Source: a bacterium (GTDB lineage: Bacteria > Patescibacteriota > Minisyncoccia > Phycocordibacterales > UBA5272). From it: a DNA stretch of 53,926 nt. The notes under the pieces are model-generated. The model ran no database searches, was not told the DNA's origin, and saw nothing but the letters and a program-made list of their open reading frames with translations. Positions 1 to 53,879 of the stretch are shown piece after piece (positions within the stretch are counted from its first letter, which is position 1; every line of letters begins with the position of its first letter). The position numbers were made by a program, and so were the translations under genes. The DNA is taken from NCBI GenBank assembly GCA_023267535.1, contig JAHFNC010000005.1, forward strand, positions 1 to 53,926, read 5' to 3'.

Positions 1-770
<770 letters not shown>

Positions 771-3664: not shown

Positions 3665-4008
3665 TAGGAGCTCCTGTCAGAATAAATCAAAGAACGTAAA
3701 TCTCGGTATGGCACTGGGGAGAGTAAAAGGATAAACCTTATCCATACCGAAATGATGGGGTGCGCCCCGATGCTTCCATGGCGACCAGCGGTATCTCCTG
3801 CGTCAACTACGGAGAGCGTGCCGCCAAACTGCGCAAGTCGTCCGCCGAAGGCGGGGCACCCTAACAAAATGGAGCAATTAAGCCCCTTCTCACCACATCG
3901 CACACCTAAGCGTACTTACCATGATGAGATTTTACTGCTCTAATTTGAAACAGTTTATTACAATTCCCTCCACTCTTTTTTCCCCAGTGGCAGCCTCACA
4001 AGGAGGCA
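3665..4008 (-). ncRNA. RT-associated structured non-coding RNA (candidate msr/msd-like or DRT-type template RNA)
   Basis: Visibly GC-rich versus the AT-rich flanks. Many hairpins: gcctc/gaggc 3993-4007, CCGCC-ttc-GGCGG, GGGG-cgca-CCCC, tcggtatgg/ccataccga 3703-3711/3742-3750. Long-range inverted repeat cactgggga(gagt) 3712-3724 versus (actc)ttttttccccagtg 3972-3989. Several G-U pairs exist only in the minus sense. Confidence 0.55.
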
Positions 4009-4014
4009 AGAATA

Positions 4015-4043
4015 ATACTATAGAAATCACGAGGTGGTGTCAA
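4015..4043 (-). promoter_or_regulatory. Sigma70-type promoter for the ncRNA-RT unit
   Basis: Minus strand reads TTGACA (4043-4038), N17, TAGTAT (4020-4015). Predicted TSS is about 4008, at the first hairpin of the ncRNA. Confidence 0.5.
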
Positions 4044-4046
4044 ACT

Positions 4047-4077
4047 AAAAGGGCGACACCTTAGGTGTCGCCCTTTT
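4047..4077 (-). terminator. Intrinsic terminator after secF
   Basis: aaaaGGGCGACACCttaGGTGTCGCCCtttt. Confidence 0.8.
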
Positions 4078-4090
4078 AGTTATCAAACTG

Positions 4091-4981
4091 TTATTTCTTA
4101 TTCTTTAAATGTCTGTTATTCCACACCACTAACAATGGGCTTGCCACGAATATTGACGAATAAGTTCCAACAATCATTCCCATCATAAGAGTGAAAGCAA
4201 AAAACTTAGTGGTTACTGGACCAAACCAATAGAGAGCAACAAGAGCCAAAACAACGGTCACCGAAGTATTTATAGAGCGAGTAAAAGTTTGTCTTAAACT
4301 TATACCAACCACTTCGCCAAAATCTTTCTTAAGATTAAGTCTTAGGTTCTCGCGGATTCTATCAAACACCACAATCTTATCTGAAATAGAAATAGCAAGA
4401 ATTGTAAGAAGTGCAATCACAAACAATGTATCTATTTGTGCACCTCTTGCATAGGACAACCAAACATAAATTCCAGTTGGAAGTAAAATATCATGAACCA
4501 AAGTTACCATAGCGATGGTTCCATATTTCCAAGAAGAGACTGGTTTAGAAACTTCACGAAAGGCAAAGGCAATGAAAAGTAGAATTGCAAAAACAACAAT
4601 GACAATAGCAATTATAGCCTTCTTAGTCATTTCAGATCCCATGGTTGGACCAACAGAAACGATAGAGTCTTCTTTATATTGATACTGGTCGCCTTCTGTT
4701 AATATTGGCTTTATTTTAGAAGACATATCTTCATAACTCAAAGAAGAGATAAACTTGTAAGACGATGTTCCTGTTTGAAAGGCTTCAATTTGAAGCGTCT
4801 TGAATTGAGATAGTTCTACAGTTGAAGTCGGCGCAAGACCGACATAACTTGTTTCAATTATTGTTCCGCCAGTGAAGTCTATTCCCTTTTTGATTCCAAA
4901 TTTACTAATAGCAACAATTGAAATGATGGCAAGGGCAAGTGAGAGTCCGATGAATATTGATTTGTATTTTACGATAAACAT
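4091..4981 (-). CDS. secF: Protein translocase subunit SecF
   Basis: SecD/F-family TM bundle; immediately follows secD; 296 aa. Confidence 0.9.
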   Translation of the reverse strand: MFIVKYKSIFIGLSLALAIISIVAISKFGIKKGIDFTGGTIIETSYVGLAPTSTVELSQFKTLQIEAFQTGTSSYKFISSLSYEDMSSKIKPILTEGDQYQYKEDSIVSVGPTMGSEMTKKAIIAIVIVVFAILLFIAFAFREVSKPVSSWKYGTIAMVTLVHDILLPTGIYVWLSYARGAQIDTLFVIALLTILAISISDKIVVFDRIRENLRLNLKKDFGEVVGISLRQTFTRSINTSVTVVLALVALYWFGPVTTKFFAFTLMMGMIVGTYSSIFVASPLLVVWNNRHLKNKK

Positions 4982-9084: not shown

Positions 9085-9157
9085 GCATCCGTAGCTCAGT
9101 TGGTAGAGCGATTGTCTTATACACAATTGGCCCCTGGTTCGAGTCCAGGCGGATGCA
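9085..9157 (+). tRNA. tRNA-Ile (anticodon UAU)
   Basis: Manual cloverleaf: acceptor gcatccg/cggatgc, D gctc-agttggta-gagc, anticodon stem attgt/acaat with loop cTTATAc, T arm cctgg-ttcgagt-ccagg, discriminator A. CCA is not encoded. Confidence 0.85.
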
Positions 9158-9188
9158 CTTTGGGTAGAATGTTCGAATGCCCCTAAGA

Positions 9189-9325
9189 TGCGTAGCACTA
9201 CACAATTGGCCCCTGGTTCGAGTCCAGGCAGACGCACTAATAGTTTAATAGCCTTACACGATTAGCCCACAGGTTCCTGGTCCAGCAGACGCACCTTAAG
9301 TCAGCTGTCTTACACAATTGACCTC
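9189..9325 (+). repeat. Array of partial/degenerate tRNA-Ile copies (internally deleted copy 9189-9236; 3' half 9252-9293; anticodon-arm fragment 9304-9325)
   Basis: 9200-9236 acacaattggcccctggttcgagtccaggcagacgca differs from 9121-9157 only in the acceptor. The later copies are progressively degenerate. Confidence 0.6.
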
Positions 9326-9400
9326 TTTGTAGATTTTTAAAAAGAATGTAAACTAATGACTAGTTGAACTTTTCTACTAATGATTTCAGGAGATTTTTTT

Positions 9401-10103: not shown

Positions 10104-12023
10104 TTATAAAATTATTTCTTCTTTCTTCTTTTTTGGAGTGATGCCGTTTACTAAAAGTAACTTTTCAAAATCTTCTCTTTCTAAACTTTCTACTCTCATC
10201 AATTCTTCGGCAATTGAAGTTAGAGCATCTCTTTTATCTATAATTATTTTTCTAGCTCTACTCCAAGAATCATCCATGATTCTTTTTATTTCGTCATCAA
10301 TCTTTTCACCAAAAGCTTCGCTGTAATCTTTTCCATACATGCTTCTTAAATAAGAATTTCTTTCATCGTGCTCAAGCGCCATAGGACCAAGCGTACTCAT
10401 ACCGTATTTTGTAACCATATTTCTAGCCATAGCTGTAGCAACCTGTAAATCATTTGATGGGCCAGTTGTTATGTCACCAAATATTTCTTTTTCAGCCACA
10501 TATCCACCGAGAGACATAGCGATGTCATCCAAAAATCTTTGTCTACTCATTAATCTAGTTTCATCAAAAGGAAGTTTAAGTGTATAACCACCAGCGTGAC
10601 CTCTCGCGATTATAGAAACTTTATGTACCGGATCAGCATCGGGTAAACATGATGCCACAAGTGCGTGCCCAGCTTCATGATAAGCAGTAATTTTCTTTTC
10701 TTCACTTGATAGCAAATGACTTTTTCTTTCAGGACCGAGCATAACTTTTTCAATCGCACGAATAAAATCATATTGTGCCACCATCTTTCTTTCTTCGCGG
10801 GCTGCAAGAATAGCTCCTTCATTCATTAAACTATAAAGATCAGCGCCAGAAAATCCAGGAGTTCTCTCAGCAATTATTTTTAGATTTACATCTTCAGCTA
10901 AAGGCTTTCCTCTTCCGTGAATTGCGAGTATTGCTTCGCGATCGCCTCTGTCTGGTAAATCAAGAGTTATACGACGATCAAATCTTCCTGGTCGTAATAG
11001 CGCCGGATCTAAGACGTCTGGTCTATTGGTTGCGGCCATAACAATTAAATTCTGTGTTGGCTCAAAACCATCCATCTCAACAAGTATTTGATTTAAAGTC
11101 TGCTCTCTTCCCTCTCCTTGTCCACCAATAGATAGCGCTCTAGCTCGACCAACAGCATCAATCTCATCAATGAAAATAATAGACGGTGCATTTTTCTTTG
11201 CCATTTCAAATAAATCTCTAACGCGCGATGCTCCAACGCCAACAAACATCTCTTCAAACTCGCTACCTGATAAATGGAAAAAAGGGACTCCTGCTTCTCC
11301 GGCTACCGCTCTGGCGAGCAATGTCTTTCCTGTTCCTGGCGCACCCATTAATAAAACACCTTTTGGAATTTGAGCGCCGATGTCTAGAAACTTTTTTGGA
11401 TTTCTTAAAAACTCAACTATTTCTAATAATTCTTCCTTCGCTTCTTTTGCTCCAGCTACATCTTTAAATGTAATTTTCTCTTTAGTGTCCCCTGGATAAA
11501 TTATTTTGGCACGAGACTGACCGAAAGAAAGAGCCTGCATGTTTGCTCCCTTGATTCCACGAACAAGCCACCAAAGCATTAGCACTACAAAAAGTATTGG
11601 CAAAAATGCAGAAAATATTCTTGTCCAATAATAAACACCAGTATCAGTTCCGATTGATACCGAAACTTTTGAAAGTGTTGTTGTACTCACCCCGTAATCT
11701 TTTAGTGTGTCTAATATTCCTGTACTCGATTCTTTTTTAGTGCTAACTTGTTGTCCGTCTGTTTTTTCGGCAATAACATCGTCTCCTTTAACAACGATAT
11801 TTTTTATACTGTTAGTTGAGACCAGAGAAGCAAGTTCAGATAATGGAATCTCTTTTGTAGTTGAAGTGCTTTGAATTAAGGAATAGCTCCACACTAAAAC
11901 CGCTAACACCAAAACTACAGTGAAAAAATTCTGGGAAAAGCTGAATATTTTCTTACCTTTTTCGTCCTTTCCTTTTATGCTCCTTATATTTGCCCTTATT
12001 TTATTGAGTGGATTCTTTTTCAT
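10104..12023 (-). CDS. ftsH: ATP-dependent zinc metalloprotease FtsH
   Basis: Two N-terminal TMs, AAA Walker A GAPGTGKT, Walker [19 protein letters not shown] zinc site. Confidence 0.95.
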
Positions 12024-18029: not shown

Positions 18030-18212
18030 GTGGAAATAATAAGCAAGGAGCTGGCAAGCAAAATTTTTGTGGATTGTGTGGATAAATTAAAAAAATCAAG
18101 GAAAGACAAGGAAGAAATCAAAAAAGTCAGAAATCATTACAGATACGCGAAGCAAGGAGTTTTTGAAAGAAGTCGTAGAAGACTACGACGACTGACAAAA
18201 ATGAACTTGTGA
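18030..18212 (+). CDS. Small basic hypothetical protein (60 aa)
   Basis: ORF only; GTG start with a poorly spaced SD; K/R-rich. Confidence 0.25.
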   Translation: MEIISKELASKIFVDCVDKLKKSRKDKEEIKKVRNHYRYAKQGVFERSRRRLRRLTKMNL

Positions 18213-18245
18213 CAAAGTAGCTGGGGTGATTTATGACTTTTTGGT

Positions 18246-18845
18246 TTATTCTAAAATACCGTCTAGATTCACATCGTAAAGTATTTCGTCTTGAATTAAG
18301 CGGTAAGTTAGTATTTCGTTTTCATTAAACCAAATCGGTATTTCGTAATCAGCTTCAGATGGATTATCTGTACAGTGAATTAAATTTCTAACAGCACGGC
18401 CATCTATATCACAAATGTTATATGTATCAATGGTGAAGTCTCCGCGAATTGTTCCAACATCTGATGTTGCTGGTTCAGTTCCACCAACTAATTTCTTTAC
18501 AATAGTGACAGATGAATTTCCTTCAACAATAAATCCAACAACTGGACCAACAGTCATATACTTCACAAGTGCACGGATAATATCTTTTCCGTATTCAATC
18601 GCTTCTTTCTCAACTGGCATTCCAAGAGCTTTACGAGACTCAACTGCTCTTTCCCCTTTTTTTGTAAACCAAGCATCGTCTTTGTTGTAATGTTTCCAAC
18701 ATTGATCTTCAGTTGGGACAAACATCTTAAGACCGATAATCTTTAAACCGGTTCTTTCAATTCTTTTTATAATTTCACCAATCAAGGAGCGTTGTACTCC
18801 GTCTGGCTTTATCATTACATATGTGCGTTCTTTTTTTGGATGCAT
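18246..18845 (-). CDS. ndk: Nucleoside diphosphate kinase (extended form)
   Basis: YVMIKPDGVQR and the NLIHCTD active-site His; 199 aa, longer than the usual ~140 aa. Confidence 0.85.
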   Translation of the reverse strand: MHPKKERTYVMIKPDGVQRSLIGEIIKRIERTGLKIIGLKMFVPTEDQCWKHYNKDDAWFTKKGERAVESRKALGMPVEKEAIEYGKDIIRALVKYMTVGPVVGFIVEGNSSVTIVKKLVGGTEPATSDVGTIRGDFTIDTYNICDIDGRAVRNLIHCTDNPSEADYEIPIWFNENEILTYRLIQDEILYDVNLDGILE

Positions 18846-18856
18846 ACTTTATATTT

Positions 18857-19060
18857 TTAGCGGGATACATATGGAAGTAATCCCATAAAACGAGAGCGCT
18901 TTATAGCGTTAGCTAAAGCTCTTTGATTCTTAGCAGTAAGACCAGTCTTACGGCGAGATAAAATACGAGCGTGTGGATTTAAGAACTTAGCAAGAACTTC
19001 AGTGTCCTTGTAGTCAATAAATTTTACATTGTTTTGGTTAAAATAATCTTGTTTTTTCAT
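18857..19060 (-). CDS. rpsR: 30S ribosomal protein S18
   Basis: IDYKD..LKFLNP..ILSRRKTGLTAKNQR. Confidence 0.92.
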   Translation of the reverse strand: MKKQDYFNQNNVKFIDYKDTEVLAKFLNPHARILSRRKTGLTAKNQRALANAIKRSRFMGLLPYVSR

Positions 19061-19094: not shown

Positions 19095-19216
19095 AAACTG
19101 GCAATAGTGCTGTATATGCGAGGCAGAGAAACTTTTTTCGACTAAGGTGTACAAATCGTACATCGCTGGAGAAAAAAGTTTTTCTAACGAAGTAGATGCA
19201 GTGCTAGTGACTGTTT
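19095..19216 (+). repeat. Three-tier hairpin repeat, copy R3
   Basis: Outer stem aaactggcaatagtgctg/cagtgctagtgactgttt; inner stem cagagaaactttttt/aaaaaagtttttctaa; apical tgtac-aaatc-gtaca. Shares the motifs (g)aggca and taacgaagtagatg with R1/R2. Confidence 0.7.
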
Positions 19217-19676
19217 AAAAAGGGATGTCTTCTACGTTGACATCAGTATCTCCATAATCAATCGTATCCAAATCACTTGCTGAAGAAGCTTTCGCTGGCG
19301 CTTGTGCTACCTGACCTCCTAAATCACCTTGTGATTGGAAACCGGCTGACTTTGGACCAAACTGAACTGACTCGGCAATAATTTCTGTGCGGTATTTTTT
19401 TCCTCCTCCGTTTGGATCATCCCAAGAACGAGTTTGAATTCTTCCCTCAATCATTACACCCTGCCCTTTCTTTAAATACTGAGCAGATGTTTCTGCTTGG
19501 CGACCGAAGATGACAATATTGTGGAATTCGGTTTGCTCTTGCTTGTTACCGGCTTGATCCTTATAAACACGATTAGTTGCTAAAGAAAACTGTGTAACTT
19601 TTGACCCAGAAGGAAGTGATTTCATTTCTGGTTCGCGAGTTAGATTTCCAAAAAGAAAAATTTTGTTTAGATACAT
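19215..19676 (-). CDS. ssb: Single-stranded DNA-binding protein
   Basis: OB fold (LFGNLTREPE...FHNIVIFGRQAE), G/Q-rich linker, acidic tail ending DIPF. Confidence 0.92.
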   Translation of the reverse strand: MYLNKIFLFGNLTREPEMKSLPSGSKVTQFSLATNRVYKDQAGNKQEQTEFHNIVIFGRQAETSAQYLKKGQGVMIEGRIQTRSWDDPNGGGKKYRTEIIAESVQFGPKSAGFQSQGDLGGQVAQAPAKASSASDLDTIDYGDTDVNVEDIPF

Positions 19677-19682
19677 ACTTCT

Positions 19683-20207
19683 TTATTTTACTTCTTCTTT
19701 TATTTCTTCGCTAGTAATAACATCTTCGATGACCCCATTATCGACTCCTTCATCTTCTAATGTTGTATCAATGTCCGTAAAGTCGGTTTCATTGTCTTTT
19801 AAGTCTTCTATCTTGATAATAGGAGCCTTTCTTGTAAAGACAGTGTTATCTTTTGATGTTTTTACCACCAAAAAACGAACAACTTGTTCATCTAGTTTTA
19901 GAGACTTTTCAATCTCTTTGATTTTAGCACCGTCAATCTCAAATTTAATCCATCCGAGATATCCTTCATTAAAACGAACGTTAATATTATTTTGGACGCG
20001 TATCATTTCGTAAGCAAGTTCACGCATATACGGAACTTCTTCAGAAATGAAGCTACCTCCTAGGGTAGCAATGGATTGCTTAAGTGCGTCTGCCTTCTTA
20101 AGCGCCGAATCTAGTTCAATTTTGTTATCAAAAATGAACGAAACTTCATAAATTCGGCTATCCACTGTGGTTTCATTATTTTCTGTCATAGGGTTATAAT
20201 CTAACAC
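19683..20207 (-). CDS. rpsF: 30S ribosomal protein S6 with acidic C-terminal extension
   Basis: RIYEVSFIF...; position in the rpsF-ssb-rpsR operon. Confidence 0.8.
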   Translation of the reverse strand: MLDYNPMTENNETTVDSRIYEVSFIFDNKIELDSALKKADALKQSIATLGGSFISEEVPYMRELAYEMIRVQNNINVRFNEGYLGWIKFEIDGAKIKEIEKSLKLDEQVVRFLVVKTSKDNTVFTRKAPIIKIEDLKDNETDFTDIDTTLEDEGVDNGVIEDVITSEEIKEEVK

Positions 20208-27090: not shown

Positions 27091-30000
27091 TTAGTTGATA
27101 GAGAATACGATATCACCAAAGGAAAGTTTTACAGTTGTTCCTTCTATGTTTTTATCTTCTTTTATTTCTCCAATTTTACAAGTGGCTTTTAGTAAATCTA
27201 AACTATTAAAATTAGACAAAGAAGAAACAGAAATATTTACAATATCTTTTGGTGATAATCCTTTTTCTTTACGGACATCTTGAATAGCACGCATAAGATT
27301 TCTAATATCTCCCTCTTTTATAAGTTCATCTGTTAAATTAATATCCAAAGAGACCTCTTCCCCTTTCTTTATTTCTTTAACATTTACTTCGTCTTTAATT
27401 ATTTCAAGATATTCATTTCCTAATTCTGTTTTTACATACAAAGTTTGTAATGGCTGACGAACAGCGATCTTACTTTCAGTTCTTTTCATCAAAGCTACCG
27501 AAACAATCTCTCTAGCTTCTTTCATGTAAGTAATAACTTCAGTGTCTATATTTCCTCCCTTTGGCCAGCTTTCTAAATGAACACTTTCTTTTTCACCGTC
27601 TAGTGTTTTGTATATTCTTTCTGATAAAAATGGCATAACTGGAGCTGTGACTTTGGCAAATTCAATTAATACAAATTTTAATGTTTGAGAGGATTTTACT
27701 TTTTCATTTTCCCCTTCATCGCCTTTTAATCTGCTTCTTGATCTTCTAACAAACCAAACAGATAAGTCATCAACGAATTGATCAACTGGACGAGTGGCTT
27801 CATCAAGACAATACTTTTGATAGCCAGCAGTTGTGCTTTTAATAACCTCATTAATTCTAGAAATTATCCATCTATCTAAAATATTTTTTGAATCAGATGA
27901 TGATTTTACATTATCAGTTTTGTTCATTTCGTATAATGACAAGACATTTTCCATTCTCAGTATTATTTTTTTGTATGATTCTTCAACCATATCGTCTGAG
28001 AAAGAAATATTTTCTCCTTTAACAACTGGAGATGAAAGTAAAACAAATCTAATAGCATCAACACCAAATTTTTCTGCTAACTCCATCGGATCAGTAAAAT
28101 TATTTTCACTCTTAGAAAGTTTTTTACCACCTTCTGCTAGAACAAGCCCGTTCACAATAACATTTTTGTACGGTGCTTTATCAAATAATCCGACCCCCAA
28201 GTTAATCAAAGAATAAAACCAACCCCGAGTCTGATCCATTCCTTCAGCAATAAATTCTGCTGGATAACTTTTTTCAAAAAGTTTTTTATTTTCAAATGGA
28301 TAGTGAATAGAGGCGAAAGGCATAGAACCAGACTCAAACCAACAATCAAAGACATCTGGGATTCTTTTCATGTCTTCTCCTTTGCTGTCTGTAATAACTA
28401 CTTCATCTATATATGGACGATGAAGATTTACTGCCCCAGTTTCATCACGAGGAACAATTTTATAATTTATCTTTCTTATTTCAGCATTATCCAAATACAA
28501 ATTACCTGACCGAATATTTTCCTCTGCCAATATAGACTCTTCTGTTAAAAGTTCAGAGCCTACTATCATCATCCTGGCTGGACTACCGTGAGTTACAAAT
28601 AAAATATTTTTATTTGTATAATTTTTCTCGCAATCCATTATGACGCTCATTACTCTATTCATTACATCTTGATGTGATTCCCCTCCTTCTATTGTGTAAT
28701 TAAATTGTAGATATTTTTTACCAACTTCTTTTTCTAAGACTCCAACATCTTTTCCGTCATATATTCCGGCATTATCTTCAGACAATCTATTATCAAAAAT
28801 AACTTCTTTATTATCTTTTATAATCTCAGCGGTTTCTTTGGCACGAATAACAGGCGATGAAAACATTACATCAATATTTAAATCTTTTACATAATCTTTC
28901 TGCTTTTCTACTTGAAATTTACCATCTTCTGTAAGATGATTATTGGTATCGTTTCCTTTATCAACCATATGAAAGACATTAGAATTTGCTTGTCCGTGGC
29001 GCATCACATAGTATGTATTTTTTGGTTTTTGTTTATTTCTTTCGGCAAGTTCAACAAGTGACCCAATCATTGTGACTTCATTCTCTGATTTCCAAACAGG
29101 AAGTGGGGCTCCCCAATATCTTGTTCTTGATACCGCCCACTCTCTTGCGCCTTCCAACCACTTTCCAAATCGCCCATCACGAATATGTTCTGGAGTCCAA
29201 CCGATTTTACTATTTTCCGAAAGCAATTTTTCCTTCATCTTTGGAACATCAACAAACCAGGAAGATGTCGCGTAATTTAGAAGCGGAGTTTTACATCTCC
29301 AACAAAGTGGATAGGAGTGAATCAATTTTTCTTTAGCAAAAAGTTTTCCATTGTGGGCCAACCATTTTATTATTTCTATATCAGCTGATTGTGTGTCCCC
29401 TACTTTCTTTACTTTCATTCCGGCAAAGTCGGTAACTTCTTCTGTAAACTCGCCATTCATTTTTACGTGCTTAATTATTGGAAGATTATTTTCTTTCGCT
29501 AAATTCATATCATCTTCTCCAAAAGCAGGCGCAATGTGAACGACTCCAGTTCCGGTTTCTGTGGTTACAAAATCTGCTCCCCAAATTTTATAAATATTTT
29601 CTTTGTTTTTTATCTCAGCCTTTTCAAAATAATTAAATAAAGATTTATAGGCTTTACCAATTAACTTTTCTCCTTTAAATTCATCAACAATTTTGTGGTC
29701 TGGGCTATTTTTAAAAACATCCTCCATCCTATCTTTTGCAACAATAAAATTGTTGCTGACGCCTTCGGTTACACTTTCAACTTTTACATAATCAATATCT
29801 TTACCAATAGCTAAAGCGACATTCCCAGGAAGTGTCCAAGGAGTAGTAGTCCAGGCTAAAATAAAAGTATTTGGCTCGTCAACTAACTCAAACTTGGCAG
29901 TGACAGAAATATCAGTAACATCTTCGTAATTCATTCCGACTTCTGATTGAGCAAGTGGAGTCTCACATCTTGGACAAATGTGCATCATCTTATTCCCTTC

Positions 30001-30525
30001 GTAAGCTAACCCTTTGTTGTGTAACTCCTTCCACGCCCACCAAATACTTTCGGTATAAGTTGCATCCATTGTTTTGTATGGATGTTCCATATCTACAAAT
30101 CTTCCGAATCTTGGAATAACATCTTTCCATTCTTTATCATAAGTAAGCACACTTTCATAAGCTTCTTTATTAAACTTATCAATTCCGTATTCTTCAATAT
30201 CTTTCTTTGATGATAGATTTAATTTCTTTTCAATTAAATTTTCAATTGGAAGACCGTGACAATCCCAACCCCAAACACGACGAACCCTCTTTCCGTTCAT
30301 TGTTTCGTATCTTGGAATTGCATCTTTAATTGTGCCGGCTAAAATATGCCCAAAGTGTGGTAGCCCTGTAGCAAAAGGAGGCCCGTCATAAAAAGAAAAA
30401 TCTCCAATCGGTTCACCATCCGCAGGAGTTTCTACAGATTTTTCAAAAATCTTATTTTCTTTCCAAAAAGAAAGAACTTCAACTTCTTTTTCATTTACAG
30501 TCTTAGCTTTTTTAGAATCTGACAT
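27091..30525 (-). CDS. ileS: Isoleucyl-tRNA synthetase with inserted histidine-phosphatase domain
   Basis: GLPHFGH (HIGH), editing-domain TTTPWTLPGN, KLSKS, DCWFESGSMP. Extra RHG...SSPVIRAKETA...FVTHG domain inserted at about nt 28440-29040. Confidence 0.93.
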   Translation of the reverse strand: MSDSKKAKTVNEKEVEVLSFWKENKIFEKSVETPADGEPIGDFSFYDGPPFATGLPHFGHILAGTIKDAIPRYETMNGKRVRRVWGWDCHGLPIENLIEKKLNLSSKKDIEEYGIDKFNKEAYESVLTYDKEWKDVIPRFGRFVDMEHPYKTMDATYTESIWWAWKELHNKGLAYEGNKMMHICPRCETPLAQSEVGMNYEDVTDISVTAKFELVDEPNTFILAWTTTPWTLPGNVALAIGKDIDYVKVESVTEGVSNNFIVAKDRMEDVFKNSPDHKIVDEFKGEKLIGKAYKSLFNYFEKAEIKNKENIYKIWGADFVTTETGTGVVHIAPAFGEDDMNLAKENNLPIIKHVKMNGEFTEEVTDFAGMKVKKVGDTQSADIEIIKWLAHNGKLFAKEKLIHSYPLCWRCKTPLLNYATSSWFVDVPKMKEKLLSENSKIGWTPEHIRDGRFGKWLEGAREWAVSRTRYWGAPLPVWKSENEVTMIGSLVELAERNKQKPKNTYYVMRHGQANSNVFHMVDKGNDTNNHLTEDGKFQVEKQKDYVKDLNIDVMFSSPVIRAKETAEIIKDNKEVIFDNRLSEDNAGIYDGKDVGVLEKEVGKKYLQFNYTIEGGESHQDVMNRVMSVIMDCEKNYTNKNILFVTHGSPARMMIVGSELLTEESILAEENIRSGNLYLDNAEIRKINYKIVPRDETGAVNLHRPYIDEVVITDSKGEDMKRIPDVFDCWFESGSMPFASIHYPFENKKLFEKSYPAEFIAEGMDQTRGWFYSLINLGVGLFDKAPYKNVIVNGLVLAEGGKKLSKSENNFTDPMELAEKFGVDAIRFVLLSSPVVKGENISFSDDMVEESYKKIILRMENVLSLYEMNKTDNVKSSSDSKNILDRWIISRINEVIKSTTAGYQKYCLDEATRPVDQFVDDLSVWFVRRSRSRLKGDEGENEKVKSSQTLKFVLIEFAKVTAPVMPFLSERIYKTLDGEKESVHLESWPKGGNIDTEVITYMKEAREIVSVALMKRTESKIAVRQPLQTLYVKTELGNEYLEIIKDEVNVKEIKKGEEVSLDINLTDELIKEGDIRNLMRAIQDVRKEKGLSPKDIVNISVSSLSNFNSLDLLKATCKIGEIKEDKNIEGTTVKLSFGDIVFSIN

Positions 30526-30786
30526 CTATCTAATATATCAAAAAAACCACCAGAAAAGAAGAATCCCCAATCTGCAAGCAGTTGGGGGTTTGATACAAAA
30601 CTCTGGCCGGGTGGGTGGCTCAGAACTTGTTGGAGTCGCCGACGATGGCGGTGATGGTGGCGAAAGCAGGCGGGGAGTGAATCGGCATAGCGATATCTCC
30701 TAATCAACGGTGATAGAAAGGGCGAAACGGCACGATGTGCTGTGCTTCTAATATATTATCACATCTCCTATGGTGCGACAATTCCC
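30526..30786 (-). promoter_or_regulatory. GC-rich structured 5' leader of ileS (T-box-like or other riboregulator; unresolved)
   Basis: About 260 nt between the upstream terminator and the ileS ATG. Multiple hairpins (CCCCAA..TTGGGG, CGCC..GGCG, CUGaGCC..GGCcAG); long-range CCACCA/UGGUGG followed by a U-run; CCGUUG (F-box-like); two AGGAGAU copies. Confidence 0.4.
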
Positions 30787-30822
30787 AAAAAAAAATACCC
30801 GCGACTTTAGATTGCGGGTATA
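30787..30822 (-). terminator. Intrinsic terminator after the histidine-phosphatase gene
   Basis: TACCCGC-aatctaaagtc-GCGGGTA followed by a U9 run on the minus strand. Confidence 0.75.
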
Positions 30823-30836
30823 CAAAATGTAACAAA

Positions 30837-31646
30837 TTATGATGCGTGTCTGGTATAGCGATTTACTTCATCAAATAAATCTTGATTGGTGAATTTTTTA
30901 CGCTCAATATATTTCCACCCAAGGTCTCCCTCTTTGTCCCATGGACACACCGAACGAACAGTTAGCATACGGGTATTTGTTACCAGTCTATTTTCTGGAT
31001 CATGTCTGGAATACCAGATTATTTGGCAATTACGGATTTTGTCAGCTGTGTCTTCTGATTTTTCTAAACGCAAGAAATCATCATGACCTAAGCCTTCTAT
31101 TTTAAACTGAATGGCTCTCATAACATGACCATGACAAACAACAATGACAGATCCGTTAGGATTGTTTCTAGCTATGCTGTCCAAAAAATCCGCCTTTATA
31201 CGCAGACATAGCGCAGCGAAAGATTCACCACCACCCGCCGGCACAGAAAGAAATGGACTAAACTTATATTGAGTTTGCTCCAAAGGAAAAAGTTTATCTC
31301 TCACATCACGAGGAAGATTATCCATAAGAGCCATATCACGCTCACGCAATTGAACATCAACACTCCATAAGGCAGATTGAAGTCCTAGGTGTGCGGCGGT
31401 CTCCTTTGCTCTAATGTAATCAGAAACAAGATAACGATCTATTGGGAAAGTAATATTGTCTCTCAACCAAGAAGCAGCGGACTGTGCCTGCTTGATGCCA
31501 AGATCAGTTAATCTGAATTCTCGACTATGTCTGTTAAGAAAATCATTAGTAAAAAAACTATTGTCTCCCTGTTCACTTGCTTTGGTGGCAATATTTCCTT
31601 CAGATTGACCATGCCTGACTAGAATAAGATTTTTAGGTAGTGTCAT
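30837..31646 (-). CDS. Histidine phosphatase (phosphoglycerate mutase) family protein
   Basis: LVRHGQSEGN, SDYIRAKETA, VVCHGHVMRA. Confidence 0.8.
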   Translation of the reverse strand: MTLPKNLILVRHGQSEGNIATKASEQGDNSFFTNDFLNRHSREFRLTDLGIKQAQSAASWLRDNITFPIDRYLVSDYIRAKETAAHLGLQSALWSVDVQLRERDMALMDNLPRDVRDKLFPLEQTQYKFSPFLSVPAGGGESFAALCLRIKADFLDSIARNNPNGSVIVVCHGHVMRAIQFKIEGLGHDDFLRLEKSEDTADKIRNCQIIWYSRHDPENRLVTNTRMLTVRSVCPWDKEGDLGWKYIERKKFTNQDLFDEVNRYTRHAS

Positions 31647-31726
31647 TATTATGCTTCCTTTCTTGAAATTAAATAGTGCTTCTACAAAAACACTACCATA
31701 GTGAAAATATTATGTCTATTTATAAA

Positions 31727-33409
31727 TTACATCTCGTCTGGGGCGACAATTCCCAAGATATATAACCCCTTGTTGATAATATTTTTGGTGGTACGGCACA
31801 AATCAATATGGTATTTATTTACTTCATTAGCTTCACTTATAATTCTAACTCTTCCATAAAATGCATTAAATGCTCTAGTTAACTGAGTCAGATGAATAAC
31901 AATATGTTGCGGAGCATTTTCTTCATAAGATTTATTTAAAGTATTAGCAAATGAATTTATCAATCTTTCTATTTCAATTTCTTTCTCTGCATTAGTAGTA
32001 ATACTTTTAGCGTCACAACATTTTAGAATAAGCTGAGTGAGTCTAGCATGAGTGTACTGCAAATACGGACCAGAGTCACCATCAAAAGAAATTGATTTTT
32101 CAAAATCAAAAACGATATCTTTCCCAGGTGCAATTTTTAGAATTGAATATTTAATTGCTGAGACAGCGACATCATTTATTAACTGCTCTCTCTTCTCTCC
32201 TTGTATTCTTCCACTATCAAATTTATCTTTTAATCTTTCCTTCACTTCTTCAATCAAATCTTCTGCTTGAATTACTTCCCCCGTTCTTGACGACATCTTT
32301 CCTTCAGGAAGACGAAGCATTCCGTGGGAAACATGTTTTAGTTTATCTGAAAGATTTTTATCAATCTCTGATAACACCGCTTTTATAACTTTAAAGTATT
32401 CATCGATTTCATTTCCAGTGACTACAATTGAAATATCATTTCCCGGAACAAGTTCTTCTTTCTTTAAACAATTTCCTAATTCTTTAGCTTCGTAAGTTGG
32501 AAGTCTTTCGCTGTTTATAAAAACTCTAGTGTGTAATCCAACCTTCTCACCTTTATAGACTACCGCTCCTTCACTTTGTTCAAAAACAGTATCAATATTT
32601 TTTAAAACTAAATCTCTACCAACCACTGCCACTTCACTTTCAAAAATATAAAAATCAAACTTTGTCCCAAGTTTCTTATAAATGGTTTCAAAATAATCTA
32701 TACTCCACTTTTTTCCTAAATCATAAATTTTATTTATATCTTCGTCAGTTCTTTCAAAAATAGCTTTATTTATAATAGCTATATCTGCTTTTTTTTCTTC
32801 ACTTTCAGCTAAAGCTTCCATTCCAAATGTATAAGCCTTACCTAGAAAAGCTACCTTTTCTCTAAGCGTTGCAGTTTCCAATGGCATTTGTTCGCCCATA
32901 TTTTTAATACCCCAAATGGTTGCAGCGACATGCATACCAACATCTCCCTGATAACAAACTCGTGTGACAGTGGCGCCAACTGATTCATAAATTCTGGCAA
33001 TTGATTCGCCTATTGCGTTTGGAACAAGATGTCCAATGTGAAAAAGTTTGAAAGGATTAGGGTCGGTGTATTCACAAATAACTTTCTTTGCATTTAGAAT
33101 ATCTAATTTAAGTTCTTCGCTTATGTAAGCGAAAGCTTCTTGTGTTCTTACTTCATCTTTTAAATAAAAATTAATAAAGCCAGGATTCGCTACTTCAATT
33201 CTTTCCACTATTGAAGATAATTTTTCTTTCAATATCTCTGTGACATCTTTAGCACATTCGGCTGGATACATTTCCTGTTTTTTACCTAAAGGAAAAGCGA
33301 TGTTAGTAGAATAATCACCATAGGAAATTTCTTCTGGCTGTTCCAAAGAAAAGATAACTCCCTCAGATAATTCGGATAGTGCGCTTTTTATCTTCTGATA
33401 ATTCGTCAT
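31727..33409 (-). CDS. argS: Arginyl-tRNA synthetase
   Basis: NPFKLFHIGH (HIGH), MSSRTG, C-terminal anticodon-binding domain ending ..DEM. Confidence 0.93.
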   Translation of the reverse strand: MTNYQKIKSALSELSEGVIFSLEQPEEISYGDYSTNIAFPLGKKQEMYPAECAKDVTEILKEKLSSIVERIEVANPGFINFYLKDEVRTQEAFAYISEELKLDILNAKKVICEYTDPNPFKLFHIGHLVPNAIGESIARIYESVGATVTRVCYQGDVGMHVAATIWGIKNMGEQMPLETATLREKVAFLGKAYTFGMEALAESEEKKADIAIINKAIFERTDEDINKIYDLGKKWSIDYFETIYKKLGTKFDFYIFESEVAVVGRDLVLKNIDTVFEQSEGAVVYKGEKVGLHTRVFINSERLPTYEAKELGNCLKKEELVPGNDISIVVTGNEIDEYFKVIKAVLSEIDKNLSDKLKHVSHGMLRLPEGKMSSRTGEVIQAEDLIEEVKERLKDKFDSGRIQGEKREQLINDVAVSAIKYSILKIAPGKDIVFDFEKSISFDGDSGPYLQYTHARLTQLILKCCDAKSITTNAEKEIEIERLINSFANTLNKSYEENAPQHIVIHLTQLTRAFNAFYGRVRIISEANEVNKYHIDLCRTTKNIINKGLYILGIVAPDEM

Positions 33410-34570: not shown

Positions 34571-35704
34571 CTATTGCCAGTGCAGAAATTGTTTTGGCAA
34601 TCTTGTTTCAATTTGTTTACGGTAGGTCCCAGAATCGGCGTAAGAAGCAGTCTTGTTACGCATTCTTTCAAAAACAAAACGTGCGACTGGATCTTTGTGT
34701 CTTAGGACCATATCGTAAGGAGCCAAAACCTCAAGCGTTGCTGTTCCAAAAAATCCTGGATCAAAGAAACCAGCAAAGTGTGAAAAGAAAAGGCCAAGAC
34801 GTGGGTCTAACGAACGAAGCTCTGCACAAAGATAGTCCGGAATCCTGAGCATCTCATTTGTTGAAAAAAGATAATGCTCACCAGCGCGAAGTCTTACAAA
34901 ACCACTTTGAGGATCTCCTTTGATGGCTTCTTCGGCATAGACCGGAGAAAAATACTCTCTCGGGTCAACGTTGCGCGAAGACAAATCAAGTGCGCGGCGA
35001 GTTTTCTTAGCTCTAAACCCAACAAGCTTTTTACCTTCAGCAAAGAGAGTGCAAAAGACAGAGCCGTCGTTACTGAACAAAGAAAGTTTACCTTGCGGAT
35101 AAGGAGACTCGTCCCTTCTGTAAAGAATATCCCCTTCTTGCAAAGTTCGACGAAGGTCATCCTCATTAAAGCGAGTATCTCCATCAAAAACTCGAAGTTG
35201 GTTATAGCACTCAAGTTGGGTGAGAATAACTGGATAAATAAGTGGCTGTAAAACCAACCAAATATTTCCAGTGTAGCCTTCGTTTTTCTTGTCGACGGTA
35301 TCAAACCAACCTAATCTATCAGCCAAAGTTCGAACAAGTAAAAAATTCCTTCCAGATGTTGACTTGGCATTGGCATAAGCATACATGCCAGGAGAAAAAT
35401 TCACGTTGACACTGGATTTGGCCACGTATTCATATCCAGGTATCATTTCGTGACCTAAAGAAATGCTCTTTGCTCCCATCATTTCAAGAGTGTTATAGAC
35501 ATCTTCATTCCCTTGGCCACGTGGACGAAAAAGTTTCTCAACCTTGTACATGTCAGAACTAGTGACGGTTAGGTCAATTGATGCGGGCCCGACGTGCTCA
35601 TCCTTAAATCCAGGAAGAGTATTTATACGATTGTTTTTTATCAATCCTTTCAAGTCATTCTGACTAAAGACACCTATTTTTGATTCCATTACGATTACCT
35701 CCAT
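34571..35704 (-). CDS. dCTP deaminase family protein (large two-domain DCD type)
   Basis: Two dUTPase-like halves; C-terminal FAGFFDPGFFGTATLEV resembles the dcd active-site region. Confidence 0.7.
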   Translation of the reverse strand: MEVIVMESKIGVFSQNDLKGLIKNNRINTLPGFKDEHVGPASIDLTVTSSDMYKVEKLFRPRGQGNEDVYNTLEMMGAKSISLGHEMIPGYEYVAKSSVNVNFSPGMYAYANAKSTSGRNFLLVRTLADRLGWFDTVDKKNEGYTGNIWLVLQPLIYPVILTQLECYNQLRVFDGDTRFNEDDLRRTLQEGDILYRRDESPYPQGKLSLFSNDGSVFCTLFAEGKKLVGFRAKKTRRALDLSSRNVDPREYFSPVYAEEAIKGDPQSGFVRLRAGEHYLFSTNEMLRIPDYLCAELRSLDPRLGLFFSHFAGFFDPGFFGTATLEVLAPYDMVLRHKDPVARFVFERMRNKTASYADSGTYRKQIETRLPKQFLHWQ

Positions 35705-35739
35705 TTTAAAAAACGGTCTGGAATAACACTATCACAAAC

Positions 35740-35769
35740 AAAAAATCTCACCAAGTGGTGAGATTTTTT
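35740..35769. terminator. Bidirectional terminator downstream of rplK/R1
   Basis: aaaaaaTCTCACCaagtGGTGAGAtttttt. Confidence 0.75.
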
Positions 35770-35783
35770 GTTTAATTATTTGT

Positions 35784-35908
35784 AAAAATAAGAAAAATGG
35801 TTTAGATACAAGGCACAGGGAATTTTTACGACCAAGACATACAGCTGGTATGGCGCGTGGAGGAAAAATTCCCTGTAACGCAGTAAATGAAATTTTTTTG
35901 TTATTTTT
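35784..35908 (+). repeat. Three-tier hairpin repeat, copy R1
   Basis: Outer aaaaataagaaaaat/atttttttgttattttt; inner cacagggaattttt/aaaaattccctgt; apical catac-agctg-gtatg. Abuts the rplK stop codon. Confidence 0.75.
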
Positions 35909-36317
35909 AAGCTACTTTTATACCTATTGAGCGAGCGGTTCCCTCAATAATTTTCATTGCTTGTTCAACAGTATGAGCTGTTAAATCTTTTAATTTTGTT
36001 TCAGCAATTTGGCGAATTTGCTCTTTTGAAATTTTACCAGCACCTCCTTTACTATTTCCTTTAGCAACACCAGCTGCTTTCATAACAAGCGATGTAGCTG
36101 TTGGGGTCTTGATTACAAAGTCATAAGTTCTGTCTTCATAAACATAGATATTAACAGAAAGTCTTCCTTGCATTCCAGCAGTTGCAGAGTTAAATTTGTT
36201 TACGAAATCACCAATCTGAACACCAGCCTGACCAAGGGCCGGACCAAGTGGAGGAGCAGGGGTTGCTTTACCTGCTTCTATCTGAACTTTTACGTACTTT
36301 GTTATTTTCTTTGCCAT
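35907..36317 (-). CDS. rplK: 50S ribosomal protein L11
   Basis: KVQIEAGKATPAPPLGPALGQAGV. Confidence 0.94.
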   Translation of the reverse strand: MAKKITKYVKVQIEAGKATPAPPLGPALGQAGVQIGDFVNKFNSATAGMQGRLSVNIYVYEDRTYDFVIKTPTATSLVMKAAGVAKGNSKGGAGKISKEQIRQIAETKLKDLTAHTVEQAMKIIEGTARSIGIKVA

Positions 36318-36379
36318 GATATTAGTTTTGCTACTTTAACATTTTTTTAAATAAGTTTCAAGGTTTTTCTGTAACGCCC

Positions 36380-36508
36380 ATAAAATCGCAAAAATTGTTT
36401 TAGATACAAGGCACAGGGAATTTTTACGACCAAGACATACAATTAGTATGGCGCGTGGAGGAAAAATTCCCTGTAACGCAGTAGATGAAATGATTTTTGC
36501 GATTTTAT
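36380..36508 (+). repeat. Three-tier hairpin repeat, copy R2
   Basis: The core of about 92 nt is nearly identical to R1. The outer stem is completely different but still complementary (ataaaatcgcaaaaat/atttttgcgattttat). Overlaps the nusG stop codon. Confidence 0.75.
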
Positions 36509-37050
36509 ATTTTTTTGACTTGAAGGAAATCAAGTTCTACTGGGGTCTCGCGACCAAACATATTAACCAAAACCTTTAGTTTTCCACGTGCAGTGTCCAC
36601 TTCTGAAACTTTTCCTTCAAAATCCTTAAATGGACCATCATTTATTCTAACCATTTCGCCAAGAGCAATTGTTATTTCGTGTTCAATTTCGGAACTATTC
36701 ATTCTACTAAACAAATAATCAATTTCCTGTTGTGAAAGTGGAACAGGTAATGTTCCGGCACCGACGAAACCAGTTACACGAGGAGTGTTGCGAACAACAT
36801 ACCAAGAGTTATCATCCACAATCATATCTACTAGAACGTATCCAGGATATATCTTTTCCTCAACTTCAACTCTTTTATTCCCCTTAACTTTTATCTTTTT
36901 TTCAATTGGAACAACCACAGCAAAAATTTTGTTCTCCATTCCTAGAGAATCTATACGCTGCTTCAAATTACGCTGTACAGCGTTTTCGTATCCACTATAT
37001 GTATGAATAGCGTACCAATGACGCTCTCCTCCTGTTTCTTGCTTTGACAT
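36505..37050 (-). CDS. nusG: Transcription termination/antitermination protein NusG
   Basis: WYAIHTYSGYENAV NGN domain and a C-terminal KOW (GEMVRINDGPFKDFEGKV). Confidence 0.92.
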   Translation of the reverse strand: MSKQETGGERHWYAIHTYSGYENAVQRNLKQRIDSLGMENKIFAVVVPIEKKIKVKGNKRVEVEEKIYPGYVLVDMIVDDNSWYVVRNTPRVTGFVGAGTLPVPLSQQEIDYLFSRMNSSEIEHEITIALGEMVRINDGPFKDFEGKVSEVDTARGKLKVLVNMFGRETPVELDFLQVKKI

Positions 37051-37060
37051 AATTTTATAA

Positions 37061-37243
37061 TTACTTAGTTAAAAGTTTAGTAAGAACGGTTTTTAGAACA
37101 AAATCAACGCCACCCAAAGAAATTGCTACAACTAAAGATATTATTATCACTAATATAGTGAAATTAATAGTTTGAGAAGTCGTTGGCCAAGTAACTTGTC
37201 TTAGCTCTTCTTTGGTCGCTTTTAGATAATCTACTAGTTTCAT
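37061..37243 (-). CDS. secE: Preprotein translocase subunit SecE
   Basis: 60 aa, ELRQVTWPT followed by a single TM; upstream of nusG. Confidence 0.8.
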   Translation of the reverse strand: MKLVDYLKATKEELRQVTWPTTSQTINFTILVIIISLVVAISLGGVDFVLKTVLTKLLTK

Positions 37244-53218: not shown

Positions 53219-53453
53219 TTTTTTGCATGCTTATGAGAAACCATATAGATTTTCTTCCACAAACAGAAAACCGCAAGAACTCTTATTAGTCTATCTTACT
53301 ATATGGTGACGAATTAATAAGCCTTTTTCTTACTTCTTATTCTACTACTGCTTTTATTTTAGACAAATGAGTTAGGGCGTGTGCCTTATCCAACCTTCGC
53401 TCATTTCAATCGCTACGGTTTTGAGCCCGCGGATAGGCACTGCAAAACCGATT

Positions 53454-53572
53454 ACAGCAAAAATGCTCGAAGTACACGAAGCGCAGAAACTTTTTGAGGA
53501 AGGCGTATATAGACATACGACGACTGAAAAAAGTTTCTAGCGCGACAAAGTAATTCGAGATATTTTTGCTGT
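53454..53572 (+). repeat. Three-tier hairpin repeat, copy R4
   Basis: Outer acagcaaaaatgctcgaa/ttcgagatatttttgctgt; inner gcagaaacttttt/aaaaaagtttctagc; apical cgtat-atagac-atacg. Confidence 0.65.
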
Positions 53573-53577
53573 TAGCG

Positions 53578-53593
53578 GTGTGCCTATCCGGAT
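53578..53593. repeat. 16-nt exact duplicate of the tRNA-His 3' end (att-like)
   Basis: gtgtgcctatccggat is identical at 53578-53593 and 53806-53821. A degenerate third copy gtgtgccttatcc lies at 53379-53391, and an inverted 11-mer cggataggcac at 53430-53440. Confidence 0.8.
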
Positions 53594-53805
53594 ATTTGGT
53601 CACCACTTTGGTATTTTTATTTCGCACATTTGAACCCAGTGCTCACAAAAACACTCAAAGTCTCGACCCCGTTCGAAAACCGACAAGTATTTGCTTCGCA
53701 AATCTTGTATACCGGTTTTCTGTTCAAATCCACGTAACAGTGCTTGGGCACTGTTACTGGATAGACACACAACAGAAAAACCCCTTTCGGGGTTTTTCTT
53801 ATGTT
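53594..53805 (-). repeat. tRNA-His-flanking conserved element B (homolog of element A), bounded by 16-nt direct repeats
   Basis: See element A. Also contains the hairpins gtaacagtgc-ttgg-gcactgttac and agaaaaacccc-tttc-ggggtttttct. Confidence 0.6.
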
Positions 53806-53806
53806 G

Positions 53807-53879
53807 TGTGCCTATCCGGATTTGAACCGGAACTGAGGGCTCCACAAGCCCGCGTGCTAACCATTACACTATAGGCACC
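53807..53879 (-). tRNA. tRNA-His (anticodon GUG)
   Basis: rc = GGTGCCTATAGTGTAATGGTTAGCACGCGGGCTTGTGGAGCCCTCAGTTCCGGTTCAAATCCGGATAGGCACA. Extra 5' G(-1), anticodon loop cuuGUGga, T arm ccgg-ttcaaat-ccgg. Confidence 0.88.

Follow-up and report, generated by a model that had tools for sequence, protein, structure and literature searches.

How should one read a hairpin of about 120 nucleotides that recurs at the ends of genes, keeps its internal loops and changes the sequence of its base from copy to copy while the pairing is preserved? The question arises in a window of 53,926 nucleotides (the whole stretch of DNA that was analysed), which originates from groundwater metagenomes and in which a preliminary description had recorded four copies of such a hairpin, R1 to R4, all in the same orientation. 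Each of the four is found on the plus strand where it had been placed, and each folds as one long hairpin with a minimum free energy of −37 to −54 kcal/mol and a z-score of −5.8 to −11, while 0 of 200 shuffled sequences fold as well. A first covariance model, built from these four, finds one more copy, R5, which lies after ndk and had been missed, so that covariance-model search gives five copies in the window. A second covariance model was built from 25 copies aligned with MAFFT. Here, R1 to R5 always denote copies of the element, while model R1 and model R2 denote the first and the second covariance model.

The copies in the window and their fold

The five copies and their surroundings are the following.

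18121-18242, plus strand: R5, with a fold that extends out to 18115-18248 and an outer stem that reaches the ndk stop codon (18246-18248); model R1 50 bits, model R2 98.2 bits; −50.0 (plus) versus −35.4 (minus) kcal/mol
18246-18845, minus strand: ndk (Pfam NDK)
18857-19060, minus strand: rpsR (Pfam S18)
19095-19216, plus strand: R3, between the ssb stop codon (19215-19217) and the rpsR start (19060); model R2 103.1 bits; −48.3 versus −21.9 kcal/mol
19215-19676, minus strand: ssb (Pfam SSB)
19683-20207, minus strand: rpsF (Pfam S6)
34571-35704, minus strand: dcd
35736-35773, no strand: terminator-like symmetrical GC hairpin with A-run and T-run, from a terminator scan and direct reading of the sequence
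35784-35908, plus strand: R1, whose end meets the rplK stop codon (35907-35909, minus strand); model R2 99.9 bits; −37.4 (plus) versus −29.4 (minus) kcal/mol
35907-36317, minus strand: rplK (open reading frame and Pfam L11)
36333-36361, minus strand: promoter-like site of rplK (TTGAAA, 17 nt, TG-n-TAAAGT) from a promoter scan, just past R2 on the gene strand
36380-36508, plus strand: R2, with its outer stem over the nusG stop codon (36505-36507); model R2 111.4 bits; −54.0 (plus) versus −43.2 (minus) kcal/mol
36505-37050, minus strand: nusG (Pfam NusG/KOW)
37061-37243, minus strand: secE
53451-53574, plus strand: R4, core, with an extended stem at 53431-53594; model R2 92.7 bits
53806-53878, minus strand: tRNA-His

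Since rplK, nusG and ssb lie on the minus strand, the elements, read on the plus strand, end at the stop codons of these genes and are antisense to them. The contact with the three stop codons had been described correctly, but not its direction, according to which R1, R2 and R3 would begin there. R3 sits within the gene row rpsF-ssb-rpsR (Pfam SSB, S18 and S6). R4 follows a fragment that resembles the 3' end of tRNA-His and not a protein gene; the extended stem of R4 consists of this fragment in inverted 11-bp copies, CGGATAGGCAC at 53431-53441 and GTGCCTATCCG at 53584-53594, and the region of 221 nucleotides has a fold energy of −83.9 kcal/mol.

To illustrate the arrangement, take the two copies on either side of rplK. 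On the gene strand, the rplK stop codon is followed by the complement of R1 and this, in turn, by the GC hairpin at 35736-35773. Alignment with relatives that have an empty site shows that the promoter-like site of rplK is kept where the element is absent, and that nusG is then directly followed by the rplK promoter. R1 and R2 share a core of 107 nucleotides at 93% identity; measured against each other, core and outer stem have identities of 0.95 and 0.54, and the outermost 9 to 10 base pairs are unrelated yet complementary, in agreement with the preliminary description. R1 and R2 are points at which Logan contigs from the source samples end, and the element family is thus a marker that can break assemblies; a clean joint between presence and absence was not found at the elements in the DNA contigs of these samples. 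The organism has no coverage in the three metatranscriptomes listed for the same study, nor in two that share 16S words.

From base to apex, the element consists of an outer stem that varies, a lower internal loop that is conserved, an inner stem with a T-run and an A-run, an upper loop and an apical hairpin of 5 base pairs, and this three-tier layout, already recognized from the first four copies, is seen both in the folds and in the alignment. Its size is 116 to 167 nucleotides, typically about 120, and its GC content varies between 26% and 63%. The C of a UAC/GUA helix, the pair G29-C102 and A101 within a conserved (A/G)AC are invariant or nearly so, insertions of 20 to 45 nucleotides are tolerated at the apex, and the outermost 9 to 14 base pairs are the least conserved part. 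A likeness to K-turns, box C/D, sarcin-ricin, UAA/GAN or Cas12a-repeat motifs was judged by eye and rejected, as the pairing pattern fits none of them, and the 2x2 loop is GA/GA in only 29 of 106 copies.

When the whole window is compared with Rfam 15, only rRNA, tmRNA and two tRNAs reach the gathering threshold and no element is matched, while a permissive scan of 35700-36560 gives sub-threshold families of hairpin type only, the best of which is MicC with 29.9 bits against a threshold of 90. A description of the family was not found in the literature searched, so that the original statement that no known motif is matched stands, and the elements have no likeness to the 5' half of the organism's own 16S rRNA or to its tmRNA.

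A family at gene ends among relatives

The search for further copies by covariance model, which the preliminary description had proposed, covered 85 Paceibacteria loci (1.38 Mb) fetched around nusG, with NusG homologues labelled as Nomurabacteria, Paceibacterota or Parcubacteria. Model R2 finds 36 copies in these loci, all on the strand opposite nusG, and a further 88 matches in 70 metagenome loci. The latter loci were picked by a subtype-specific DNA pattern over a metagenome collection, since a general IUPAC pattern for the whole family, at about 20 bits, was judged too weak for large collections. In viral contigs no copy was found; a type-A pattern had no match and a type-B pattern one chance match inside an open reading frame. 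The genes followed by copies include nusG, rplK, ssb, ndk, nrdA, nrdB (twice), glyA, SIMPL (three times) and CYTH, with a tRNA fragment in addition, and the family is thereby not specific to the ribosomal-protein operons of the original description. The order of the flanked genes nusG, rplK, ssb and ndk is conserved across relatives. In the sampled loci of these lineages there is one element per approximately 3 to 10 kb, a density that extrapolates to about 1% to 3% of a genome spent on a structured element of 120 nucleotides.

The pairing is strongly supported by covariation. For four copies from the window, RNAalifold gives 37 pairs, 18 of which have compensatory changes. For the 25 copies aligned independently with MAFFT, 88.5% of the pair cells are canonical, compared with 65.9±1.1% in shuffled alignments and 39% to 49% when the 3' partners are slid, and 180 cells are changed on both sides, compared with 56±5.7 in shuffles. 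The joint alignment contains 106 copies, and for the 103 distinct ones, aligned to the model, the canonical fraction is 93.1%, against 62.1% for shuffled and 38% to 48% for slid partners. Double changes occur in all 35 of the 35 pairs and amount to 982 cells, against 276±14 in shuffles, so that the compensatory changes first noted in four copies hold for the family. As there are more than 100 members elsewhere, and as covariation is far above both the shuffled and the slid controls, chance can be excluded as the origin of the fold.

How old is the family, and does it move? The median identity of the cores amounts to 0.575 for copies of one genome and to 0.54 for copies of different genomes, where the between-genome value is inflated because only a subtype pattern was scanned. 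An identity of about 57% within a genome means that there has been no recent burst and that the family is old and selected. The only pairs that are alike are neighbours that flank a single gene or riboswitch (0.95, 0.89 and 0.81), and this points to local gene conversion. The site after nusG is filled in 15 genomes, some with only about 70% NusG identity, and that after rplK in 6, and filled and empty genomes are intermixed on a rough tree of NusG and L11. For the orthologous post-nusG copies of loci L013 and L015, the core identity is 0.96 and that of the outer stem 0.71, with pairing kept, while the upstream intergenic flank has, as judged by eye, largely diverged. The empty sites that had been asked for in relatives do occur, as in L016, the sister of the filled L013, but the indel between these two has at its edges the self-complementary AAACGT(TT) of the stem base, which would agree with a deletion between these short repeats as well as with an empty site.

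A mobile hairpin of MITE type, as had been considered, does not hold: with the low identity within genomes goes an absence of conserved terminal inverted repeats common to all copies and of target-site duplications, the longest direct repeats at the boundaries being like those of a mixed-pair control and any longer ones self-complementary stem sequence. Among about 48 open reading frames scanned in the window, some of which match no family, there is no Pfam match to a transposase, an integrase or an HUH/RAYT domain. A retron-like reverse transcriptase is encoded at 2456-3664, far from all five copies, and tblastn finds no relatives of it in 1.86 Mb of element-bearing and related loci; a link to retron msr/msd was rejected, as the elements are not beside the reverse transcriptase of the window. 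It follows that the family is old and that each copy is preserved by selection, which acts on its pairing and on its loop sequences.

Orientation, strand asymmetry and transcripts

Let the strand on which the covariance model finds the fold, antisense to the followed gene in a typical copy, be called the model strand. Its 3' end lies at most 15 nucleotides from the stop codon of a convergent open reading frame in 31 of the 36 nusG-locus copies and in 46 of the 70 metagenome copies that have a neighbour, and overlaps of up to 16 nucleotides are common, so that the suspected tie to gene ends is borne out when the copies are mapped against stop codons. The 5' end is that tight in 0 of 68 metagenome copies; the 5' side nearly always keeps at least 20 nucleotides, and the smallest gap, 5 nucleotides, belongs to a single copy of the nusG-locus set. 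The uniform orientation of 36 out of 36 copies near nusG, where 24% of the genes are opposite, suggested coupling to replication, which was rejected because the metagenome loci show both orientations and follow the local direction of the genes. Opposite orientations behind opposite genes are found within single loci, L092 and L117, and in L092 a plus-strand gene followed by a minus-strand element and a minus-strand gene followed by a plus-strand element occur within 2.3 kb.

The next start codon is 20 to 60 nucleotides away in at least 14 copies, and there the polymerase of the operon must read through. About ten copies are sense-oriented, none of which abuts a stop codon, and two of these, in locus L153, are found on either side of a SAM riboswitch (60.4 bits in Rfam) that precedes an open reading frame read by eye as metK. 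Tandem copies 5 to 12 nucleotides apart and head-to-head pairs also occur. Each typical copy is located inside the transcription unit of the gene that it follows, where it starts at or overlaps the stop codon and precedes the next cistron or the terminator, and it is turned so that the strand that folds well, with G·U pairs, purine·purine mismatches and purine-rich conserved loops, is the antisense (template) strand.

The difference between the strands is large. In 96 of 100 copies the model strand folds better, by about 10 kcal/mol. For the nusG-locus copies this is so in 26 of 27, with a mean difference of −10.4 kcal/mol, and for copies found independently by a fixed-sequence DNA pattern in 70 of 73 with RNA parameters (mean −47.4 versus −36.7 kcal/mol) and in 71 of 73 with DNA parameters (mean −24.5 versus −19.7 kcal/mol). 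In the helices of the model strand, G·U exceeds A·C by 220 to 80, and by 128 to 58 in copies outside the training set of the model, while in the mRNA sense there are 6.2% C·A mismatches and 2.3% G·U pairs. When read as mRNA, R3 has a z-score of −1.3 and folds no better than shuffled sequence. The model strand is composed of 35% A, 23% G, 27% T and 15% C, and its unpaired positions are 39% A and 28% G; such purine-rich loops are the usual make-up of real structured RNAs, as in the loops of rRNA and riboswitches. Changes from C to T are in excess on the non-template strand and would give the opposite asymmetry, for which reason the asymmetry is read as selection. A selected fold that lies antisense to the gene argues, further, against the plain mRNA-stabilising hairpin that had been among the first suggestions, another of which, a protein-binding site, may still apply.

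What transcripts can be expected? On the gene strand, a GC-rich hairpin with a T-run is found 5 to 55 nucleotides beyond the element in 30 of 109 copies (28%), compared with 5 of 103 control stretches. Those of the hairpins that were inspected by eye, among them the one at 35736-35773 behind R1, are symmetrical, each preceded by an A-run and followed by a T-run. Such copies show the order gene, element complement, terminator; the mRNA then carries the weaker complement, and polymerases that arrive on the model strand from further upstream would be blocked. In front of the elements on this strand, no fixed distance shows an enrichment of promoter-like hexamers; 25 nucleotides ahead of one sense-oriented copy, L153:666-785, lies an extended −10 box, TGTTATAAT. 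As judged by eye, a U-run follows the hairpin in about 60% of the 36 aligned copies from the nusG loci and is absent from R3.

The reading that is placed first, as a tentative proposal drawn from sequence and well short of being probable, is that of a polar hairpin which acts in RNA of antisense polarity as a barrier or a mark at the gene boundary. Nucleic acid of this polarity would form a long, stable and sequence-specific hairpin at the element, and its most conventional carrier would be RNA from polymerases that enter the gene from its 3' side, having started at a convergent neighbour or at promoters that are divergent or arise spuriously in AT-rich DNA. The hairpin could then stop, mark or destabilise antisense transcripts at the boundary, probably with the aid of a protein that recognises the conserved loops. 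Transcribed as mRNA, this DNA would form a hairpin weaker by about 10 kcal/mol, with C·A and pyrimidine mismatches near its base, that the operon's own transcription and translation can pass. The outer stem, of which only pairing would be required, could for that reason drift and recruit the local gene end, and neighbouring copies may be homogenised through gene conversion.

The polar-hairpin reading accounts for the asymmetry, the fixed orientation and the sense read-through, and it loses weight through the terminators nearby, the lack of U-runs in part of the copies and the sense-oriented pair in the leader of L153. Where a symmetrical GC hairpin with T-run is present (30 of 109), it would already stop antisense polymerases and make a further barrier redundant, and if transcription from upstream expresses metK in L153, the fold is no efficient terminator in its strong orientation. 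It also counts against this reading that simple termination would not require conserved internal loops.

Next in rank, and likewise doubtful, is an element that acts at the level of mRNA, in the manner of REP, ERIC or SMAG repeats, and whose active form is the complement in 3' UTRs or intercistronic mRNA. It might block 3'-to-5' exonucleases, set differential stability within an operon or join stop and next start codon, and a protein such as S1 or a cold-shock protein might recognise its pyrimidine-rich loops. Given the 30 of 109 terminators and the short gaps, the sequence supports a single route of expression, namely transcription together with the upstream gene. The coupling to stop codons is tight, the complement still folds (at the mean of −36.7 kcal/mol given above), and REPs, which are mostly found downstream of coding regions, are thought to act as RNA (PMC3733652). 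The pairing, however, is selected on the other strand, as seen from the excess of C·A over G·U in the mRNA sense, from the 96 of 100 copies that fold worse as mRNA and from R3, and a hairpin ahead of a terminator hairpin is redundant for protection of the 3' end. The third place is given to a single-stranded DNA element, an unlikely solution in which the folded antisense strand, or possibly cDNA, would be the substrate of a strand-specific DNA enzyme, such as a recombinase, a transposase or a protein of nucleoid or topology, as RAYT acts on REP hairpins and IntI on attC with its bottom strand folded. The orientation relative to genes would then be secondary, in that compact and fully transcribed genomes would tolerate only the weak strand in mRNA. 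The asymmetry does hold with DNA parameters, no promoter is needed and the conserved loops suit recognition by protein; the distribution over close relatives is patchy, one core type is met at different sites, there are sense-oriented exceptions as well as tandem and head-to-head pairs, R4 is set among tRNA-fragment repeats, and attC sites likewise measure about 60 to 140 bp, lie after the stops of open reading frames and fold on the complementary strand. Against a DNA enzyme speak the window's scanned reading frames, with no transposase, integrase or HUH match in Pfam, the absence of target-site duplications and of recent copies, the core genes in conserved order, the missing boxes that define attC, and a retron-like reverse transcriptase that has no relative near other copies; transcription, moreover, exposes the non-template strand and not the strand that folds.

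The two remaining explanations carry much less weight. Independent genes for small RNAs, each with its own promoter on the model strand and an end at the stop codon of its neighbour, would produce a protein-binding RNA or a cis-antisense regulator. The composition of the loops and the use of G·U resemble real structured RNA, the 5' side is nearly always free for at least 20 nucleotides and L153:666-785 has its extended −10 box, but a positional promoter signal is lacking, many copies have terminator-like hairpins 9 to 40 nucleotides upstream, and a tandem spacing of 5 to 12 nucleotides and gaps of 20 nucleotides to the next start leave no room for promoters, so that such genes are improbable. 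Ordinary intrinsic terminators, or chance palindromes in AT-rich DNA, would explain the A-rich 5' arm, the T-rich 3' arm and the position at gene ends, and are the most improbable of all for an element of 120 nucleotides with conserved loops and the invariant G29-C102 and A101, which has copies inside operons, is often followed by a separate canonical terminator and shows covariation that excludes chance. An intrinsic terminator would have a short GC-rich stem and a U-tract ending the unit, while the stem here is long and AT-rich.

Irrespective of the carrier, the family presents a puzzle, in that the element is co-transcribed with its gene and yet has its fold selected on the other strand. 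Stated broadly, in a claim that is itself tentative, it may be a new gene-boundary signal, fixed at core genes, in which folded nucleic acid of antisense polarity, be it template DNA, cDNA or antisense RNA, is read by a putative dedicated CPR protein. If this is true, the signal would be a functional parallel to attC or REP/RAYT and might organise recombination, topology or transcript boundaries genome-wide. The CPR, or Patescibacteria, make up a large share of bacterial diversity and are uncultured, with tiny genomes that have almost no spare DNA. The covariance model, the alignment of more than 100 copies and the strictness of the positional rule make the family a well-defined and testable handle on the marking of gene ends in these organisms, and the solution could reveal either a new means by which AT-rich, streamlined genomes insulate their genes from antisense transcription or a new system for recognition of single-stranded DNA.

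Comparison with known gene-end repeats

REP/BIME and the GTAG-tagged repeats (SMAG) that go with RAYT are likewise interspersed extragenic palindromes, located mostly after coding regions and co-transcribed with them (PMC3733652). They sit between co-directional and convergent open reading frames, and RAYT reads one specific DNA strand of them as a hairpin (PMC3733652). REPs are GC-rich, 20 to 40 bp long, conserved in sequence within a genome and tagged with GTAG/CGTC at one end, and they are found in either orientation and frequently as inverted pairs. The elements described here, in contrast, are about 120 nucleotides long, with three tiers, conserved internal loops, about 57% identity within a genome and an orientation that is fixed relative to the gene. 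The short GC-rich tagged palindrome that defines the REP/RAYT class is absent from them, GTAG being found only within the 3' lower loop and stem.

Similar in size are ERIC (127 bp), Correia/NEMIS, RUP and BOX, imperfect palindromes that lie between genes in transcribed DNA and whose RNA hairpins can affect the fate of mRNA. These repeats are conserved in sequence and occur in either orientation, and those of MITE type have terminal inverted repeats and target duplications, whereas the elements here are most variable at their ends, lack a duplication and have their selected fold antisense to the gene. Bidirectional intrinsic terminators share with them an A-tract, a hairpin, a T-tract and a site at the gene end. 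Compared with such terminators, the elements are five times longer and strand-asymmetric, have conserved loops, are present inside operons and are often followed by a separate terminator.

The attC sites of integrons are imperfect palindromes of 57 to 141 bp (123 to 126 bp for the Vibrio cholerae repeats) that lie directly after the stop codons of open reading frames. Structure is better conserved in them than sequence, the active form arises from folding of the strand complementary to the open reading frame and not of the other, and the terminal structure is variable, in likeness to the apical insertions of the present family. The definition of attC rests on R''/R' boxes (RYYYAAC/GTTRRRY) at the stem base, on extrahelical bases and on the integron integrase. 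In the present elements, the stem base varies and the conserved (A/G)AC lies in the internal loop without a GTT partner, with only C102-G29 paired; the genes are core genes in conserved order instead of cassettes, and no integrase domain was matched in the window.

The closest known kinds are thus the REP/BIME/SMAG and ERIC-type repeats and, conceptually, the attC sites of integrons. Within the class of gene-end palindromes, the family is unusual in its strict antisense orientation, its abutment to stop codons and its deep covariation combined with conserved internal loops.

Surroundings of nusG and rplK

Some relatives carry, at the site just past the nusG stop codon, which is occupied by the element copy R2 in the window, long hairpins that lie outside the element family:

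L024, ~744-930: unrelated post-nusG hairpin
L030, ~10555-10720: unrelated post-nusG hairpin, with the better fold on the sense strand
L001, 10547-10724: unrelated post-nusG hairpin

The post-nusG site seems to attract hairpin elements generally. In L003, a close relative, a pair of genes (bAvd and RVT_1) resembling a diversity-generating retroelement lies at 3046-4435, about 1.7 kb upstream of nusG. At 34571-36317, the window has dcd, dut and DHFR genes after rplK instead of rplA, rplJ or rplL, as is also the case in relatives. Ribosomal protein L1 is reportedly absent from part of the Parcubacteria.

In the metagenome locus L153 (666-1140), two copies of the element, both in the sense orientation, flank a SAM-I riboswitch (787-896; 60.4 bits), which precedes an open reading frame identified by eye as metK. 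An extended -10 box, TGTTATAAT, is found 25 nt upstream of the first of these copies.

RNA genes and tRNA fragments

In the stretch 9085-9330 of the window, the 3' 40 nt of the tRNA-Ile with anticodon tat recur downstream of it with 95% identity at 9199-9238, and two further, decayed copies of the 3' end follow at ~9255-9296 and 9310-9325. These copies are a trace of integration and excision events that took place repeatedly at this tRNA. Degenerate 3'-end fragments also occur downstream of the tRNA-His gene:

53806-53878, minus strand: tRNA-His

Here several such fragments are scattered in both orientations between 53420 and 53800, and an inverted pair of them encloses R4, the element copy with its core at 53451-53574. 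In comparison with the bacterial model, the 16S rRNA has a 44-nt insertion near position 80, in its 5' half (1-769, minus strand).

Histidine-phosphatase domains at the IleRS gene

27091-30525, minus strand: isoleucyl-tRNA synthetase (IleRS), interrupted at residues 506-654 by the insertion of a histidine-phosphatase domain (His_Phos_1)
30837-31646, minus strand: stand-alone His_Phos_1 gene, which on the gene strand precedes the one for IleRS

The same insertion in isoleucyl-tRNA synthetase is found in the relatives L001, L003, L005 and L008. A 43-nt direct repeat (family D9, 79% identity) has one copy ahead of the IleRS gene (30758-30800) and the other where the ArgRS gene has its 3' end (31726-31768).

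A retron-like reverse transcriptase

2456-3664, minus strand: reverse transcriptase (RT), 402 aa, with retron RTs as best matches
2162-2368: cysteine-rich open reading frame, 68 aa, downstream of the RT

When 1.86 Mb of element-bearing and related loci were searched by tblastn, no relatives of the window RT were found in other loci. Its best matches are NCBIfam retron_St85_RT (1.7e-24) and PADLOC RT_II-A, all of them under the curated cut-offs. Upstream of the RT (3665-4000), some 300 nt form a GC-rich stretch, atypical for this AT-rich genome. The RT, the GC-rich stretch and the cysteine-rich frame have the look of a retron-like system, here in the genome of a CPR bacterium, and the inverted repeats that bound the GC-rich stretch, CCACTGGGGA and TCCCCAGTG, resemble the a1 and a2 repeats of retrons.
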